A stretch of 33,504 nucleotides of DNA from Anaerolineae bacterium (lineage in GTDB: Bacteria > Chloroflexota > Anaerolineae > JADYZS01), in NCBI GenBank assembly GCA_020853075.1, contig JADYZS010000047.1, forward strand, positions 1-33,504, given 5' to 3'. The translations under genes were made by a program, and so were the position numbers. The notes under the pieces are model-generated. The model was given only the letters and a program-made list of their open reading frames with translations. It was not told the origin of the DNA and ran no database searches. The stretch's first letter is position 1; each line of letters opens with the position of its first letter. Shown here in pieces: positions 8,036-23,909 of this stretch.

Positions 8036-8086
8036 TGCAGACCGAAGGTGATATAGATACTAACCCAGCCAGACTGAAAAGACCCG

Positions 8087-8219
8087 GTCATCGGTTAGAA
8101 ACCGACGGCAACCGGCTAGGAAGCCCGCAGAGCGGGCTTAACGAACGTGCAGCCGTACTCGCCCCGCGGAGCGGGACTTTGCGGGCCTCCCACCGCCGTC
8201 GGATTTTATCCGATGGCGG
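8087..8219. repeat. Modular hairpin cassette (type-1 hairpin / type-2 AGA-loop hairpins / inverted type-1 hairpin), copy 1
   Basis: Hairpins at 8087-8109 (CATCGGTT-AGA-AACCGACGG), 8121-8139 (AAGCCCGC-AGA-GCGGGCTT), 8163-8175 (CCCGC-GGA-GCGGG) and 8193-8219 (CCGCCGTCGGAT-TTT-ATCCGATGGCGG). The same module set recurs at 22415-22499. Confidence 0.6.
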
Positions 8220-8246
8220 CCTGTTTCTAGACTTCTCTGACAGTCT

Positions 8247-12130: not shown

Positions 12131-12197
12131 ATAAGCGGTCAGCGGATAGGGCGCGGATTAGCGGATATCGCCGCCGCGCGAAGGCTATCCGCTGACC
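12131..12197. repeat. TCAGCGGAT-bounded palindromic repeat element, copy 1
   Basis: TCAGCGGAT (12139-12147), CGCGGAT (12152-12158), TAGCGGAT (12159-12166) and inverted ATCCGCTGA (12187-12195). It shares GAAGGCTATCCGCT with the copy at 16565-16580. Confidence 0.6.
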
Positions 12198-12316: not shown

Positions 12317-13894
12317 ATGGCTATGCCCGACCATACAGACGAACAGGTAGCAAGATACCTTCCGACTCCGCAGGACGGCCCCGGCTGGTGGACGCGGTTC
12401 CAGGCCGCGCTGGGCCACCTGGTCACCGGCAAACTGTCCCTGGATGATCTGTGGCTGCTCGTGGTTCCTCTGGGCATGATTATGTTGTTGGGCCTGGAAC
12501 AGATCCGGCCTCACGACTTCTGGTGGCATCTGCGAAGCGGCCAGATCATCGTGGAGAATGGCTCCCTCCTGAGAGCCGACCTTTTCAGTTTCACCCGGTA
12601 CGGTTCTTCCTACACGACCCAGTATTGGCTGGCAGAGGTTGTCCTCTATCTCCTTTACCGACTCGGTGGGCTCCCCCTCGTCATATTCTGCCATGCCATC
12701 CTCATAGCCTGTGGGTACGTGCTCGTTGAGGCGGCCTCCCTGCGGTTGGCCGGCGGAGACGTGCGGGCGGCGGCCCTGGCTACCGTCGCGGCGATGGCTC
12801 TCGGTATGATGAACTGGACGGTGCGACCTCAATCCTTCTCGTTTTTGCTCTTCGGTGTGCTGGTTTGGATCCTGGAGACGCACCGGGCGCGGGGAGGACG
12901 GGTGATCTGGGCTGTTGTGCCGTTGTTTGCCCTGTGGTCTAACATGCACGCCGTCTATGCCTTCGGCATAGCGCTGCTGGCCGTCTATGTCCTGTCTCAC
13001 CTGTTTGCGGATTACGTGCAACACCGCTCGCTTGGGCAACAGACGCGCCCGTTGCTTGGGGCTGGTGTCGCCTCGTTGTTTGCCTTGTCCCTCAATCCTG
13101 GCGGCCTCCGGGCTATCGCTGCTTATCTCTCTAGCCTACTCCAAAGCAGCGTCGTGCAGAACAGCATTATAGAGTGGCAGCCCCTGTCTATAAGAGAAAC
13201 AGATGGGCAGGTGTTTGTTGTGACGGTGGTTCTGTTTCTTCTGTTGGCCTTCCATCGCCGCGTCTCTTTGCCACTCTACCTGGTTGCCGGGATGCTCCTC
13301 CTCGGCATCTTAAGCCTCTACACGCGGCGGGTATCCCCCTGGTTCGGGATGGCGGCTGCCCCCGCCTTTGCATTGGTCCTGGCCACACCGGCAAACTGGT
13401 TCTACCAGAAAACCCCGTTCCGGTCTGGGGGAGGGTCGCGCCTGTTTAATTACCTCTTTGTGGGGGCGCTGACTCTCCTTCTCGTCGCACGCTTGCCGTG
13501 GTTGCGGCCATACCTGCCGTTACCTCCTGAGAAGCGTTCCTACATTGCGGGCACCGAGACCCCTGTGCAGGCCGCCGTGGCCCTCTGTCGCCTCGGCCCT
13601 GGCCTGCGACCTTTCAACAACATGGTGTATGGCAGTTACTTGATCTGGGCTTGCCCGGAGGTGCCCGTATTCATAGACCCGCGCGTGGAGCTATATCCTG
13701 ATCGCATCTGGTACGATTATTTCCTGGTGGGCAGCGGACAGTTCGGTTGGGAGAAGGTGTTGGCCGGCTATGGCGTCAACGCCATCATTGTAGATAAGGT
13801 GGAGCAAGGGATACTCATTGCTGCGGTCAGGGCGTCGGGGAACTGGCAACTTATCTACGAAGACGACCACACGGCGCTTTACCATTTGCCCTAG
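12317..13894 (+). CDS. Polytopic membrane protein, GT-C-like glycosyltransferase fold suspected
   Basis: 525-aa ORF with many hydrophobic helices. The first loop motif is HDFWWHLRSGQIIVENGSLLRADLFSFT. The C-terminal ~150 aa look soluble. The functional call rests on pattern recognition only. Confidence 0.7.
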   Translation: MAMPDHTDEQVARYLPTPQDGPGWWTRFQAALGHLVTGKLSLDDLWLLVVPLGMIMLLGLEQIRPHDFWWHLRSGQIIVENGSLLRADLFSFTRYGSSYTTQYWLAEVVLYLLYRLGGLPLVIFCHAILIACGYVLVEAASLRLAGGDVRAAALATVAAMALGMMNWTVRPQSFSFLLFGVLVWILETHRARGGRVIWAVVPLFALWSNMHAVYAFGIALLAVYVLSHLFADYVQHRSLGQQTRPLLGAGVASLFALSLNPGGLRAIAAYLSSLLQSSVVQNSIIEWQPLSIRETDGQVFVVTVVLFLLLAFHRRVSLPLYLVAGMLLLGILSLYTRRVSPWFGMAAAPAFALVLATPANWFYQKTPFRSGGGSRLFNYLFVGALTLLLVARLPWLRPYLPLPPEKRSYIAGTETPVQAAVALCRLGPGLRPFNNMVYGSYLIWACPEVPVFIDPRVELYPDRIWYDYFLVGSGQFGWEKVLAGYGVNAIIVDKVEQGILIAAVRASGNWQLIYEDDHTALYHLP

Positions 13895-13903
13895 AGGCGA
13901 CGA

Positions 13904-13972
13904 GGGTCAGCGGATGCCTGCGGCGTAGCGGATTAGCGGATAGTCCCTCGTAGAGAGGCGTCATCCGCTGAC
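13904..13972. repeat. TCAGCGGAT-bounded palindromic repeat element, copy 2
   Basis: TCAGCGGAT (13907-13915), TAGCGGAT x2 (13926-13941) and inverted ATCCGCTGA (13963-13971). Positions 13904-13938 are 35/35 identical to the reverse complement of 20253-20287. Confidence 0.7.
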
Positions 13973-14110
13973 TTGAAAATAGCCTCGCGGTCATTCCCTG
14001 TGCCGGTCTTCGCCCGGCCAGGGCGGAGTACCGGCTGAGCGGGTTAACCCCCAAGACTACCGCCTAGAGCCATGACCAGCGAAGAATCTCACACCACTCC
14101 GAGATGCTTC

Positions 14111-14149
14111 GGCCCACAGTGTGCCGATCTGCCGGGCACACTGTGGGCC
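14111..14149. repeat. 15-bp perfect GC-rich hairpin inside a 507-bp gene-free region
   Basis: GGCCCACAGTGTGCC (14111-14125), a 9-nt loop, then GGCACACTGTGGGCC (14135-14149). Confidence 0.5.
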
Positions 14150-14401
14150 CGGCAAACTGCGGGCCTCAGCACCGTTCGTGCCGCGAGCAGCGGCGGCACG
14201 CCGGCCGTTCGCCTTGGCGTGCCCGCCAGGGCACGGCACAGGGTGCGAGACGGCATGACATTTTCATGCGAGGTGGTGAAGAGAGTTCATGTTGACTAAT
14301 CCGTTGCTTGCACCTCGTCGGCGCAAGCCGACAGGCTACTTATCAGCTGATCGGGAATCCCCCCCCCATATTTTTAGGATAGGTACTTAAGGTGAGATAC
14401 G

Positions 14402-15631
14402 ATGATCGTTCGGCTCCGACGCAACAGACCGCTGAAACTGGCACTTTTGCTGATCCTCGCGGCCATTCTTGTAAGGCAGAGCCTTCACGCCATCGGTAGC
14501 GCCGATCCCCACAGTGATGATTTCATCCAGTATTGGGCGGCAGGGCGGCTTGTGCTCATCGGTGGCAATCCCTACCTGCCTGCGGATGAGCAACTCCTTT
14601 CCGTGCCAGAGGCTGTGGATTGGTTGCGGGTGGAACGGGTCATCACGTATCTGCCACCCTGGGCGTTATCTTCCTTCGTACCTATCGGCTTTGTTTCTTT
14701 TTCCACTGCTCGCTTCATCTGGCTATTGGTCAGCTTGGGGCTGATTCTTGTCTGCGGAGACTGCCTTTGGCATCTCTATGGTGGCCCGGCCCGTTATAAG
14801 TGGCTGGCTCCCTGCCTCTGTGCTACCTTCTTTCCTGCCGTCAGCGCATGGCGTAATGGGCAGATTGGGCCTTTGATCCTGGCAGGTGTTGTTGCCTTCT
14901 TGTATTTTCAGAAGCGACAGCGATGGGGCTGGGCCGCGGTGGCCGCTCTCGTGATGGCTTTCAAGCCTCACCCGATCTATCTGGTGTGGATAGCCCTCTG
15001 CATTTGGATCTTCCGGTACCGGCTCTGGCGGTTGTCTCTGATGATAGCGGCTGCCGTAGCGATTGCGACGGCGATCACGTTGGCGTTTAACCCCTACGTG
15101 ATCGGCCAATACGCCAACGCCTTAGCGCGCGTGTCACCGTTTTACTGGGGGACACCTACTCTCGGATCAATTCTGCGGTTGGCGTTTGGCTGGGAGTATT
15201 CCTGGCTACCCTTCATCGCGCCGGCCTTGGGGATCATCTGGCTGGGGCTCTACCAGGGACGACGTAAGGGGATCTGGCAGTGGCTGGAGGAGATGCCTTT
15301 GCTACTCCTCGTATCGGTCACCACCAGTTGGTATGGCTGGCCGGTAGATCAGGTCGTCTTGTTACCGGCGGTGATGCAGGTTGCCGTCTGGAGCACAACG
15401 AGTCCCCGGCGTGCGGCTGCCATCGTTTCCCTCGTGGTGTATCTGGTAATCAACGGTGTGCTTCTGGTGATGAACCAGTTGGCGGTAAACCAGTTCCATT
15501 TCTATTGGCTGGCGCCGGCACTGTTAGTGGGTTACGTCAGCGCGCGCCGGGGTTTCCGGCGTGAGGAAGAGGTCGCTGCGCTCTCGCGCGCCGAACGCGC
15601 CTCTGAGCCGGCCGGCCAATATGGACGGTAA
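14402..15631 (+). CDS. DUF2029 / GT87-like polytopic membrane glycosyltransferase
   Basis: 409-aa ORF with the first-loop motif DDFIQYWAAGRLVLIGGNPY typical of DUF2029/GT87 proteins, and about 10 or more hydrophobic helices. AAGGTGAG lies 5 nt upstream of the ATG. Confidence 0.7.
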   Translation: MIVRLRRNRPLKLALLLILAAILVRQSLHAIGSADPHSDDFIQYWAAGRLVLIGGNPYLPADEQLLSVPEAVDWLRVERVITYLPPWALSSFVPIGFVSFSTARFIWLLVSLGLILVCGDCLWHLYGGPARYKWLAPCLCATFFPAVSAWRNGQIGPLILAGVVAFLYFQKRQRWGWAAVAALVMAFKPHPIYLVWIALCIWIFRYRLWRLSLMIAAAVAIATAITLAFNPYVIGQYANALARVSPFYWGTPTLGSILRLAFGWEYSWLPFIAPALGIIWLGLYQGRRKGIWQWLEEMPLLLLVSVTTSWYGWPVDQVVLLPAVMQVAVWSTTSPRRAAAIVSLVVYLVINGVLLVMNQLAVNQFHFYWLAPALLVGYVSARRGFRREEEVAALSRAERASEPAGQYGR

Positions 15632-15655
15632 CCTGTGTGCTGGGCCATCCATAGC

Positions 15656-15687
15656 AACGAGGGGATGTTCCGAGACATCCCCTCGTT
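15656..15687. terminator. 13-bp perfect hairpin between convergent genes (possible bidirectional terminator)
   Basis: AACGAGGGGATGT-TCCGAG-ACATCCCCTCGTT followed by TGG. It lies between the GT87-like stop (15631) and the M50 stop (15750). The U-tract is weak. Confidence 0.45.
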
Positions 15688-15749
15688 TGGCAATGGACCG
15701 TCCGGTGGGCCCCCGCGCCCCGAAACGGCAAATGGGGTAGGTAAATAGC

Positions 15750-16385
15750 TCAGGAAGCACCGGCCATGCGCACGGCCAATAGCAACATACACACCATGGC
15801 GGTCAGTTTGAGGCCGGTACGGTGCAGCATCGCCTCGCGCTGGGGCGATAACCGCAACCCCAGGCGCGCTACACTGAGCACCAGGATGTGGCCGCCATCC
15901 AGCCCTGGTAACGGCAGCAAGTTGTAGAACGCCAGGAGGAGCGAAATAGCCGCCGTGGCGATGAGCCAGGATTGGGCTGCCGGGTCAGACCTTGTGAAGA
16001 TGGCAAGGACGATCAGGGCTGCCATAAGGAGGAGGCTGGCTATGGGGCCACCAGCGGCAACGGTGAGGTCCTGTTTCCAGGGACGGCGATCCTCGCCGGT
16101 TTCACTCCGCCGCCCCAGCAGGCCGACGGCCATCCCGACCGGCACAAGCCGCCATTCAAACTGCACGCCGTTGGCGAAGGATCGCCGCCAGAGGATCGGC
16201 CCCAGGCCAACGGCTATTAACTTAATGGGAATGTGCAACGCCTTTGCCATAACCAGGTGTCCGAATTCGTGTCCGATGGTTGCCAATATGAGCGCAAGAG
16301 CAAACCCAACCAGCGAGAAGGGCATAGCGAATGTTGGTGACATGTATATTGTAGTCCGCTGTGACGCGTGATGATTCCCCTGCAT
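15750..16385 (-). CDS. M50 family site-2 metalloprotease (short form)
   Basis: Has HEFGH (HExxH) and NLLPLPGLDGGHIL (NxxPxxxLDG) in a polytopic protein. The start is set at ATG 16385, preceded by the purine-rich GGGAAGGGGAAGGGAAAA. ATG 16343 or the track start 16508 are alternatives. Confidence 0.75.
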   Translation of the reverse strand: MQGNHHASQRTTIYMSPTFAMPFSLVGFALALILATIGHEFGHLVMAKALHIPIKLIAVGLGPILWRRSFANGVQFEWRLVPVGMAVGLLGRRSETGEDRRPWKQDLTVAAGGPIASLLLMAALIVLAIFTRSDPAAQSWLIATAAISLLLAFYNLLPLPGLDGGHILVLSVARLGLRLSPQREAMLHRTGLKLTAMVCMLLLAVRMAGAS

Positions 16386-16520
16386 TTTTCCCTTCCCCTT
16401 CCCTACTTTATCTGTTTTCGTGCCGCCTCGCAATAGTACCAGGGTGACAAACCGTTGGCACGGGCGATAGGACTTTCGGCCTATCGGTGTGTAAAACCAC
16501 AAAGGCACGAAGGTCTATTC

Positions 16521-16610
16521 GGGTCAGCGGATGGGTAGAGGATAAGCGGATACCGTCTGCCCACAAGAAGGCTATCCGCTAATCGGCCACGCCGAAGCCA
16601 TCCGCTGATC
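16521..16610. repeat. TCAGCGGAT-bounded palindromic repeat element, copy 3
   Basis: TCAGCGGAT (16524-16532), AAGCGGAT (16544-16551), inverted ATCCGCTAA (16574-16582) and ATCCGCTGA (16600-16608). Confidence 0.6.
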
Positions 16611-16658
16611 TGGAGGTACAACGAGGAATCATGAACCAGGGGGAGGTAGCGAGGTGGA

Positions 16659-16832
16659 TCAGCCAGGTCGCCGTCCGATGAACAACCCTCTGCCGGTTAG
16701 CCCGTCAGGATCATACGTCACGTCAAGGCCGACTCCATTAGAACTGAAGAGGCACGTCACGACGTCGTACTCACGGCCCAGGTTGAAAGCGGTCATGTCT
16801 CCGTGATGGAAGGGGATGCCGGGGTTCCCTTG
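16659..16832 (-). pseudogene. Remnant of a class I SAM-dependent methyltransferase (5'-truncated, internally deleted)
   Basis: The in-frame translation is NPGIPFHHGDMTAFNLGREYDVVTCLFSSNG, then VGLDVTYDPDGLTGRGLFIGRRPG*. It matches the mid-protein GDM..F.LGR.FD.V.C.FSS.G motif joined directly to the C-terminal G.(S/T)GRGLF.G tail of TylM1/DesVI-type methyltransferases, as recalled from memory. There is no SAM-binding N-terminal part, and the upstream frame runs into the etfA 3' end. Confidence 0.6.
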
Positions 16833-16833
16833 C

Positions 16834-20020: not shown

Positions 20021-20287
20021 GGTCAGCGGAAAGAGATACACCACGGAGACACGCAGAATAGATTCAGCGGATAGGTAGCGGATTAGCGGATGGTCCCTAC
20101 GGGCTGCTTTTCGTCTCTCCCCCGTTCGTTTTACGGGGGAGGGTTGGCCGCGAAGCGTTCCGTCGCTTGCACCTGTGCTGGGCTGCGCCCGGCCAGGGCG
20201 CAGGGTCGACTAATCGGCGCAAGCCAACAGGCACGCGGGTGTGGGGGCCTTTCGCTAATCCGCTACGCCGCAGGCATCCGCTGACCC
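20021..20287. repeat. MITE-like composite element bounded by inverted TCAGCGGAT/TAGCGGATTAGCG ends
   Basis: The left end at 20064-20091 is TCAGCGGAT-AGG-TAGCGGATTAGCGGAT. The right end at 20253-20287 is the reverse complement of GGGTCAGCGGATGCCTGCGGCGTAGCGGATTAGCG. Internal 8-bp hairpins lie at 20117-20141 and 20183-20203. GCTTGCACC...GGCGCAAGCC arms are shared with 14307-14330. It also has an upstream TCAGCGGAA (20023-20031) and CCACGGAGACAC (20041-20052). Confidence 0.6.
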
Positions 20288-22380: not shown

Positions 22381-22414
22381 TTTCTACTCCTTTGAGTCCT
22401 AATCGGTGCAGCCT

Positions 22415-22499
22415 GCCATCGGATAAATCCGACGGCTACATTCGCAAAACCCGCAGAGCGGGTTTCTTGATCGATAGCCGTCGGTTTCCAACCGATGGC
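22415..22499. repeat. Modular hairpin cassette, copy 2
   Basis: Hairpins at 22415-22436 (GCCATCGGAT-AA-ATCCGACGGC), 22447-22465 (AAACCCGC-AGA-GCGGGTTT) and 22477-22499 (GCCGTCGGTT-TCC-AACCGATGGC). The architecture matches 8087-8219. Confidence 0.6.
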
Positions 22500-22511
22500 C
22501 GGCACTCTGAA

Positions 22512-23767: not shown

Positions 23768-23909
23768 AACCACGGAGACACAGAGGACACGGAGGAAGTG
23801 GTTTACCACAAAGACACAAAGGCACAAAGTTTATGATTATCTTTGTGTCTTGGTGCCTTGGTGGTGAGGCCTTGTTTCTTTTCTCTGTGCTCTCCGTGTC
23901 TCCGTGGTT
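23768..23909. repeat. 142-bp nested palindrome built from tandem short motifs
   Basis: The outer arms AACCACGGAGACAC (23768-23781) and GTGTCTCCGTGGTT (23896-23909) form a 14-bp perfect pair. The left half carries CACRGAG x3 then CACAAAG x3. The right half carries CTTKGTG x3 then CTCYGTG x3. It fills most of the 168-nt thiolase/HADH gap. Confidence 0.65.

Follow-up and report, generated by a model that had tools for sequence, protein, structure and literature searches.

Four repeat loci in the window

The DNA analysed here (the window) is the whole of a 33,504-nucleotide contig, JADYZS010000047.1, from an Anaerolineae bacterium, and corresponds to contig C47 of the genome assembly G000 (4.18 Mb, 532 contigs, 84% complete, 61.6% G+C). 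The genes that neighbour the repeats are ordinary: a 525-aa open reading frame (ORF) with no Pfam match, a GT87-like gene, an M50 peptidase gene, etfA/etfB and two acyl-CoA dehydrogenase (ACAD) genes. Four intergenic regions hold arrays of the heptamer AGCGGAT in inverted arms, and it is this AGCGGAT family, together with the GxxExxY proteins, a family of putative nucleases whose genes are bracketed by the same arms in other genomes, that is described here. In what follows G denotes a sampled genome, C a contig and L an extracted locus (e.g. G000:C273, L105).

Counting both strands, the 33.5-kb window contains 22 copies of AGCGGAT, compared with 6.06 +/- 2.58 in dinucleotide-preserving shuffles of the window (n=100), none of which reached 22. 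A preliminary description of this DNA, made from its letters alone, had proposed four loci of common design, and the sequences at all four match that proposal. Its count of about 12 heptamers in plus and 6 in minus orientation is also close to ours, with 16 exact copies in the four loci (10 plus, 6 minus) and ~12-13 in plus orientation once units with one mismatch are included. The single obvious chance hit that it reported is an undercount, given that six solitary copies lie outside the loci (5638, 9265, 10890, 18944, 23464, 26320), about the number expected by chance. The identity of positions 13904-13938 to the reverse complement of 20253-20287 was reproduced at 35/35, and the objection that this might reflect a local duplication can be answered: the exact 35-mer occurs only at these two window sites, yet G000 contains relatives at 25 sites with <=2 mismatches and at 45 with <=4. 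Because of the 25 sites at <=2 mismatches, we take the 35-mer to be an arm shared by a family, and reject a local duplication.

Genome-wide copies, anatomy and fold

Across G000 there are 1020 copies of AGCGGAT and 152 of GTCAGCGGAT, the latter against ~8 expected for a 10-mer on a uniform-frequency estimate. The heptamers fall into 104 clusters, most commonly in the pattern ++--, and pairing TCAGCGGAT with the next ATCCGCTGA yields 63 elements, whose lengths peak sharply at 85 bp (n=20). An nhmmer profile built from 23 canonical copies finds 97 non-overlapping copies. The check set by the preliminary description, enrichment in intergenic DNA, also speaks for a real family: 164 of 193 TCAGCGGAT ends and 46 of 48 copies of the 16-mer TAGCGGATTAGCGGAT are non-coding in a genome that is 86.4% coding and 13.6% non-coding by our own ORF-based gene calls. 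Among the contigs, many start or stop within AGCGGAT elements, a number of them with identical sequence (C40, C95, C101, C140, C222, C264, C338, C371, C384, C415, C422, C423 and C490); the family is one of the main causes of breakage in the G000 assembly, and more than 97 copies probably exist in reality.

In the canonical unit, two inverted arms around a 22-nt loop make up an 85-bp core, which the weak outer ends extend to ~97 bp. To the left of the loop the order is (TTnnnG)GTC-AGCGGAT-AGG-TAGCGGAT-TAGCGGAT, and to the right it is ATCCGCTA-ATCCGCTA-CGCCGAAGGC-ATCCGCT-GAC(CnnnAA). Each arm is therefore made of three phased heptamers, H1, a spacer, H2 and H3, with a period of 8 nt between H2 and H3, and the terminal inverted repeats are GTCAGCGGAT/ATCCGCTGAC with the weaker extension TTnnnG...CnnnAA. 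The spacer after H1 is asymmetric: one arm has 3 nt here, the other 8-12 nt. The long spacers vary in sequence (GCCTTCGGC, GCCTGCGGC, GCTACGCGTAGC, TGACTGCGTCA, TGCCTGCGGCA, GTGCTACGCAC) and yet all are self-complementary, which argues that this side hairpin is kept as a structure. Folded as single-stranded DNA, the canonical unit is predicted to form a 10-bp outer stem, the side hairpin and a 17-bp inner stem (-37.6 kcal/mol, z -10.2); an Rfam scan of the window matched no family.

Conservation is >=90% in the arms and 40-60% in the loop. Two loop families are recognisable, and members of each lie either way round between the asymmetric arms (9:4 and 4:3); thus either the centre flips or the arms exchange. 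The size variants span 57-345 bp. One inner arm is missing from the short variants of 57-66 bp, as at the first and second loci of the window, and long variants of 114-345 bp contain additional, different repeat modules, as at the fourth. Coordinates are collected in Table 1; the stretch that abuts the fourth element on its left is debris of the AGCGGAT family plus a second heptamer family.

Table 1. Elements of the AGCGGAT family in the window, with their parts, profile matches and predicted folds
Element	Position	Strand	Left arm	Loop or interior	Right arm	Match, fold and surroundings
Short variant, 57-bp core, inner right arm missing	12137..12197		H1 TCAGCGGAT 12139-12147; AGG spacer; degenerate H2 GCGCGGAT 12151-12158; H3 TAGCGGAT 12159-12166	Loop 12167-12186	H1' ATCCGCTGA 12187-12195	nhmmer 32 bits over 12138-12197; DNA fold -21.8 kcal/mol, z -3.4
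Short variant, 65-bp core, complete long-spacer arm	13905..13972		H1 13907-13915; spacer mini-hairpin GCCTGCGGCG 13916-13925; H2 13926-13933; H3 13934-13941	Loop 13942-13962	H1' 13963-13971	nhmmer 46 bits; followed by conserved CTTGAAAATAGCC... module common to several short copies
Full-length canonical element	16522..16609	+	H1 16524-16532; GGG; degenerate H2 TAGAGGAT 16536-16543; H3 16544-16551	22-nt loop 16552-16573	H3' 16574-16581; degenerate H2' ATCGGCCA 16582-16589; side-hairpin spacer CGCCGAAGCC 16590-16599; H1' 16600-16608	nhmmer 65.4 bits, model positions 2-88; DNA fold -27.4 kcal/mol, z -5.9; between M50 peptidase gene and etfA (genes by Pfam)
Long composite variant, 221 bp	20064..20285	+	Short-spacer arm: H1 20064-20072; AGG; H2 20076-20083; H3 20084-20091	Other repeat modules: CCCCCGT...ACGGGGG hairpin ~20117-20141; GTCGCTTGCACC...GCAAGCCAACAGG module 20162-20232	Long-spacer arm: H2' 20258-20265; spacer CGCCGCAGGC 20266-20275; H1' 20276-20284	Two nhmmer half-hits, 20064-20101 and 20240-20285; fills gap between two ACAD genes
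Degenerate extra end GGTCAGCGGAA, then CACGGAG/CACGCAG-type units	20021..20063					Abuts composite element; sequence reading

GxxExxY genes bracketed by the same arms

In contig G393:C317, inverted arrays of long-spacer arms bracket a 134-aa gene whose product matches TIGR04256, 'GxxExxY protein', at 108 bits, and in G007:C192 complete AGCGGAT palindromes stand on both sides of a gene for a GxxExxY protein 70% identical to it. Against TIGR04256, genes that lie between AGCGGAT or AACGGAT arms score 108-158 bits. In five genomes every GxxExxY gene was found to be bracketed by heptamer arrays, and the heptamer tracks the protein type (AGCGGAT, GTCAACGGAT, CGCAGAG, CGCAAAG, ACGAAT).

An alignment of the G007:C192 and G393:C317 proteins was used as the query for further homologues, those with >=52% identity being treated as close; 'near' refers to DNA <=300 nt from the gene and 'far' to DNA >350 nt from it. 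Among genome contigs, most of the ~30 close homologues, which come from Anaerolineae, Dehalococcoidia, Bipolaricaulota and cyanobacteria (Calothrix, Stigonema, Microcoleus), have several copies of A[GA]CGGAT within 300 nt, with up to 18 copies per 600 nt, and remoter homologues have CACGAAT, CGCAGAT, CACAAAT or AGCAGAT in the same 3+3 layout. Among metagenome contigs, at least four copies of A[GA]CGGAT lie within 300 nt at 42 of the 48 close loci, and the density of the heptamer at these loci is 397 per 27.2 kb near the gene versus 33 per 56.2 kb far from it, a 25-fold enrichment. Only 3 of 31 remoter metagenome homologues have as many; CACGAAT, CGCAGAT or CGCGGAT is found instead. The layout of inverted arms of phased heptamers recurs with AACGGAT, CACGAAT and CRCAGAT in L060, L084 and L091.

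The protein tree places nearly all CGGAT-flanked genes in one 26-row group (Shimodaira-Hasegawa-like approximate likelihood ratio support 87), the exceptions inside it being one CACGAAT pair and two rows with no clear heptamer, and the CACGAAT and CGCAGAT pairs each cluster together. We read this pattern as suggesting that gene and arms travel together, and not as a formal test of co-evolution.

The arrangement of gene and arms takes more than one form. Many gene-bearing units have the order palindrome-gene-palindrome with both palindromes complete (L024, L059, L061), while at L019, L023, L057 and G393:C317 the gene lies inside the loop between half arms. Upstream of the gene in L105, L106 and L110 the design is the same asymmetric one as in G000, GGTCAGCGGAT-AGG-TAGCGGATAAGCGGAT ... 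ATCCGCTAATCTGCTA-GGCCGTAGGTC-ATCCGCTGA, and in Calothrix relatives tandem AACGGAT(GT) arrays lie on both sides of the cognate gene (L057, L066).

Two metagenome-assembled genomes (MAGs) of Anaerolineae (L012, from G393:C317, at locus positions 1432-2901, and L052) have the AGCGGAT-bracketed GxxExxY cassette exactly between hisI and hisE. There the reading frame of hisE stays open across the downstream arm array (repeated SVNPLRRSQSADHP), and a read-through ORF of 309 aa results.

The GxxExxY protein

In an alignment of 35 sequences, from which rows L067 and L102 were left out on account of in-frame stop codons, residues G18, H24, G30, E33, Y36, D72, N114, F115 and R124 are invariant and E82 and K84 nearly so. 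The conserved D72, E82 and K84 give the D...ExK signature of PD-(D/E)XK enzymes. An AlphaFold model (predicted local distance difference test score, pLDDT, 91.5) has as its nearest solved folds, at a template-modelling (TM) score of ~0.5, Cas4 SSO0001, the AdnAB nuclease domain, RecE-like exonucleases and MGME1, and lower in the ranking Hjc, all of them generic PD-(D/E)XK neighbours; a sequence search of the PDB with the protein gave no match. It is plausible, judging from the conserved residues and this model, that the GxxExxY protein is an active nuclease that lacks a close characterised relative. PF13366 was listed as being of unknown function in a 2012 survey of the PD-(D/E)XK superfamily (PMC3424549), and in the literature on GxxExxY, PF13366 (PDDEXK_3) and TIGR04256 no report was found that links the family to repeats or to flanking heptamer palindromes.

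The only GxxExxY gene of G000 (C273:3560-3933) is of a different clade, with CACGGAG arrays on both sides. These arrays (AACCACGGAGACACGGAGGACAC...; G000:C273:3470-3990) closely resemble the outer arms (AACCACGGAGACACAGAGGACACGGAGG...) of a gene-less palindrome in the window at 23768-23909, which is 142 bp long and nested, with a CACAAAG palindrome in its loop. Given the CACGGAG arrays at C273 and the similar palindrome, gene-bearing and gene-less forms of a second flavour therefore occur in one genome. No gene-bearing copy of the AGCGGAT flavour was found in G000, where unpaired ends are chance hits in genes, cuts at contig ends or ends with a degenerate partner; the AGCGGAT copies of G000 are orphans, because the cognate gene is absent from the assembly.

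Genomic context and distribution

Gene calls exist on either side of 75 copies, and there the flanking genes are co-oriented in 61 cases, divergent in 9 and convergent in 5, which is the same mix as that of all intergenic regions, and the orientation of copies relative to transcription is weakly biased (39:22). The spread of the family was traced with the 16-mer in 401 sampled genomes of the class, for which a reversed-sequence control was essentially zero. It is present in nine of them, with 48 copies in G000, 21 in G155, 11 in G024, 8 in G007 and 1-2 in each of five others, and it has 0 copies in G001 (94% complete), the sole other genome of the genus that was compared. Contig G001:C154 is syntenic with the window between 11.4 and 22 kb, and the junction between the two ACAD genes measures 16 bp in G001 versus 295 bp here, 279 bp longer.

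Comparison of 13786-16833 with G001:C154:2196-3192 also indicates that the GT87-like gene (14402-15631) and a 430-nt structured gap beside an AGCGGAT element have no counterpart in G001, where the homologue of the 525-aa ORF is followed directly by the M50 peptidase gene. The repeats here have an indel next to them.

Other repeat modules in the same genome

At least five repeat families are interleaved in G000. One, which we call the third module (GTCGCTTGCACC...GGTGCAAGCCGAC-AG), has 75 ends genome-wide and is found at 20162-20232 of the window and also in C9, C42, C69, C181, C248, C319, C346 and C418. Approximately 24 of its ends sit in AGCGGAT elements, at the same position of H2 (TAGC^GGAT), in either arm and with no duplication, which suggests that one palindromic element nests site-specifically in another. 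The sequence GTAGGGGCGCAGCATGCTGCGCCCCTAC, a perfect palindrome of 28 nt with GTAG at its head, is present in 16 copies and takes the place of one inner arm in several AGCGGAT elements (C69:10385, C226:1428, C281:767, C348:1784, C362:435, C153:4459); it looks nearer to a classical GTAG-tagged repetitive extragenic palindromic (REP) sequence than the AGCGGAT family does. Short AGCGGAT variants (59-66 bp) are regularly followed by a conserved module, CTTGAAAATAGCC...TGAGCGGGTTAACC.CAAGACTAC, and so make up a composite subfamily (window 13973-14060, C421:14217-14290, C92:6704, C210:5083, C330:6950, C405:6240). At C138:5270-5500 and ~25-40 other sites the core lies inside a larger palindrome with the outer inverted repeat CCTATCCKAAAAAT..., followed by a 70-copy hairpin, GTAGAGACG...CGTCTCTAC.

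G000 also encodes a single gene like those of the REP-associated tyrosine transposases (RAYT), within the region G000:C65:16600-17400 (L001 1190-1960). On either side of it stand hairpins with a CGTC tag, CGTCGGATTTTATCCGATGG (62 copies in the genome), along with GCCATCGGTTAAAACCGACGG and a CCCGC-AGA-GCGGG hairpin. This hairpin set is arranged as three tandem copies upstream and one downstream, and the same modules occur in the window at 8036-8246 and 22381-22511. CGTC-tagged REPs are said to lack a dedicated transposase (Di Nocera et al. 2013, PMC3733652), and for that reason their position around a RAYT-like gene may be notable.

Interpretation and alternatives

The AGCGGAT repeats have the look of a selfish repeat family whose enzyme partner is apparently undescribed. 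The four loci of the window belong to one dispersed family of ~100 gene-less palindromic elements, and we think it probable, on balance, that this family is the non-autonomous form of a GxxExxY nuclease cassette, a partner that the preliminary description had not considered. For the arms, the third option of that description, binding sites for a protein set out in arrays, is the most likely, and their co-occurrence with the gene suggests that the phased heptamers would be recognition sites of the GxxExxY nuclease. Gene and arms together would then constitute a selfish cassette that moves between genomes, and the gene-less palindromes would be spread or maintained by the nuclease, which may act on the array, or on a hairpin or cruciform formed by it, without producing a target-site duplication. 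A host effect, in the form of strong hairpins inside operon transcripts, is probably incidental.

Several points weigh against this reading. We infer the recognition of DNA by the protein from co-occurrence, and the arrays could be element ends, homing targets or scars of deletion between two flanking palindromes, each of which fits the data. Nor does the tree pattern amount to statistical proof of co-evolution, because related genes share flanks by descent. A GxxExxY gene of the AGCGGAT clade was not found in G000 (tblastn with 13 GxxExxY proteins matched C273 only), and no GxxExxY gene was found in G155 despite its 21 copies of the 16-mer. This leaves ~100 copies with no visible partner; G000 and G155 are only 81-84% complete, and repeat-flanked genes assemble badly. 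We likewise infer the mobility of the elements, no event of insertion or excision having been seen among the data compared: a blastn search of G000 with the joined 50-nt flanks of 38 copies for paralogous empty sites gave no match across the junction, and the intergenic DNA of G001 is too diverged (coding identity 66-84%) for element ends or duplications to be placed. Copies of the outer repeat without the core were too few in G000 to be of use.

The preliminary description had named two classes, REP sequences or bacterial interspersed mosaic elements (BIMEs) and MITEs (miniature transposable elements with inverted repeats). What stands of its interpretation is a dispersed, structured, probably mobile intergenic family; both named classes fail their defining tests. 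Mobilisation as REP, BIME or REPIN elements by RAYT, a Y1 HUH transposase, through a GTAG-tagged hairpin would account for high-copy intergenic palindromes in a genome with one RAYT-like Y1 transposase, and GTAGCGGAT does occur in 114 copies, with the inner stem starting GTAG...CTAC. The REP is defined as an imperfect palindrome of 20-40 bp with a 5-13 bp stem and an unpaired GTAG or CGTC tag that flanks RAYT genes (PMC3733652), whereas the unit here is 85-97 bp, its outer end is GGTCAGCGGAT and its GTAG pairs with CTAC in the inner stem. A GT, which the preliminary description had likened to the head of REP elements, precedes only 114 of the 1020 heptamers. A search for PF01797 in G000 and five other genomes with the 16-mer, in which the flanks of the main matches were read, placed different repeats beside RAYT: the sole G000 gene (G000:C65:16907-17251) is flanked by CGTCGGATTTTATCCGATGG, GCCATCGGTTAAAACCGACGG and GGGAAGCCCGCAGAGCGGGCTT, with exact AGCGGAT absent within 1.5 kb, five RAYT-like loci read in G155, G024 and G013 have their own unrelated repeats, and G007 and G393 hold AGCGGAT elements but no RAYT match. 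This origin is accordingly very improbable, and we give just as little credence to classical MITEs, that is, deletion derivatives of insertion sequences (IS) whose terminal inverted repeats are bound by the DDE transposase that mobilises them. Terminal inverted repeats, repeated subterminal motifs, the range of sizes and the patchy spread would all suit a MITE. Yet in 57 copies, with k = 2-8 and offsets of 0-4 on each side (25 combinations), target-site duplications never exceeded shuffled controls, and because of their absence the DDE-type MITE is rejected. No transposase-bearing parent was found either: in G000 no pair of ends brackets a transposase gene or ORF, the only large pair being 16 kb apart, and the only gene found between such arms in any genome read is that of the GxxExxY nuclease.

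It is also conceivable, though improbable, that the repeats serve the host as regulatory or structural elements, either binding arrays for a host protein or hairpins for mRNA stability or processing, with no mobile system involved. The 61 of 75 copies that lie between co-oriented genes would be transcribed with operons, the hairpins are very stable and the arms are far more conserved than the loop. However, the same context is seen in intergenic regions at large, operon ends are not preferred, orientation is only weakly biased, and there is no Rfam match; moreover, the family is confined to nine of the 401 genomes, was not found in G001 of the same genus, and the same arms accompany the nuclease gene across phyla. 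Somewhat less improbable, though still unlikely, is that the copies are not independently mobile, being scars left by gene loss through recombination between flanking palindromes, or pre-existing homing targets whose loop could receive a copy of the nuclease gene. The many units with a complete palindrome on either side of the gene invite just such a deletion, a gene in the loop between half arms is what would be expected of a homing endonuclease gene that splits its target, and the presence of loops in both orientations implies that recombination between arms happens. Against this, it would be unparsimonious for ~100 cassette insertions each to have lost the gene with none kept, and several copies at contig ends are identical or near-identical, which suggests recent copying of the gene-less form.

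Two further candidates were set aside. A REPIN consists of two inverted palindromic REPs, whereas the AGCGGAT arms are direct heptamer arrays that are non-palindromic apart from the spacer mini-hairpin. In the case of integron attC sites, the ends here are GTCAGCGGAT and not GTTRRRY/RYYYAAC, and the copies are dispersed singly between housekeeping genes (etfA, ACAD); intI was not searched for.

Wider significance and comparison with known systems

The non-autonomous cassette form proposed above invites a broader proposal, which we put forward tentatively and consider somewhat less than an even prospect. GxxExxY proteins may be widespread, unrecognised element-specific nucleases that read a heptamer code of ~N-R-C-R-R-A-K (AGCGGAT, AACGGAT, CACGAAT, CGCAGAT and CACGGAG among others) in phased arrays on hairpin or cruciform DNA, and that in this way propagate or keep up, across bacterial phyla, large families of gene-less palindromes as well as the cassette that holds their own gene. 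They would be a PD-(D/E)XK counterpart of RAYT-REPIN, with a specificity predictable from the flanking repeats.

Dispersed palindromic repeats are common in bacterial genomes and, to our knowledge, REPs are the only ones with an identified enzyme partner (RAYT). The AGCGGAT elements represent a second kind of repeat, of different architecture, that is tied by genomic context across several phyla to the very large PF13366/TIGR04256 family. If the link is functional, that family gains a testable DNA substrate, the protein-heptamer pairs form a natural set from which a recognition code could be derived, and many 'mysterious' intergenic palindromes in MAGs would be explained. The elements also matter in practice, in that they break short-read assemblies and place strong hairpins inside operons, such as the operon for beta-oxidation and electron transfer flavoprotein (ETF) in the window. 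What this analysis contributes is an AGCGGAT/AACGGAT clade that spans Chloroflexota, Bipolaricaulota and cyanobacteria with a quantified near-versus-far enrichment, the asymmetric arm with its structurally conserved side hairpin, the flipping of loops, and a large orphan family not found in G001.

Among known systems, the likeness to REPIN-RAYT is considerable: both comprise high-copy, intergenic, hairpin-forming, gene-less repeats that lack target-site duplications and are patchily distributed, each has a DNA-cleaving enzyme encoded by a low-copy gene that the repeat sequence also flanks, and in each different repeat flavours go with different enzyme clades. The enzyme here, however, is a PD-(D/E)XK (GxxExxY) nuclease of ~125-150 aa and not a HUH/Y1 transposase, the arms are three phased heptamers and not a short palindrome with an unpaired GTAG, and the RAYT of G000 serves another repeat. 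The bracketed genes belong to the GxxExxY family (TIGR04256; PF13366 PDDEXK_3), of which the window holds the DNA partner only and not the gene. The ends of IS21, Tn7 and Mu-type elements are inverted and contain several direct copies of a short motif, and MITEs are short gene-less derivatives. Repeated motifs in inverted ends and gene-less derivatives are thus common ground, but the AGCGGAT elements lack target-site duplications and a DDE transposase, and form a near-perfect hairpin over their whole length. The intervening sequences that carry ORFs in 23S rRNA genes of bacteria are alike in layout, with small accessory ORFs bracketed by stem-forming inverted repeats. Finally, the short tandemly repeated repetitive (STRR) sequences of filamentous cyanobacteria and the TAACTGA repeats of Beggiatoaceae (PMC4679880) are likewise intergenic heptamer arrays, although they have other sequences and no assigned gene partner.

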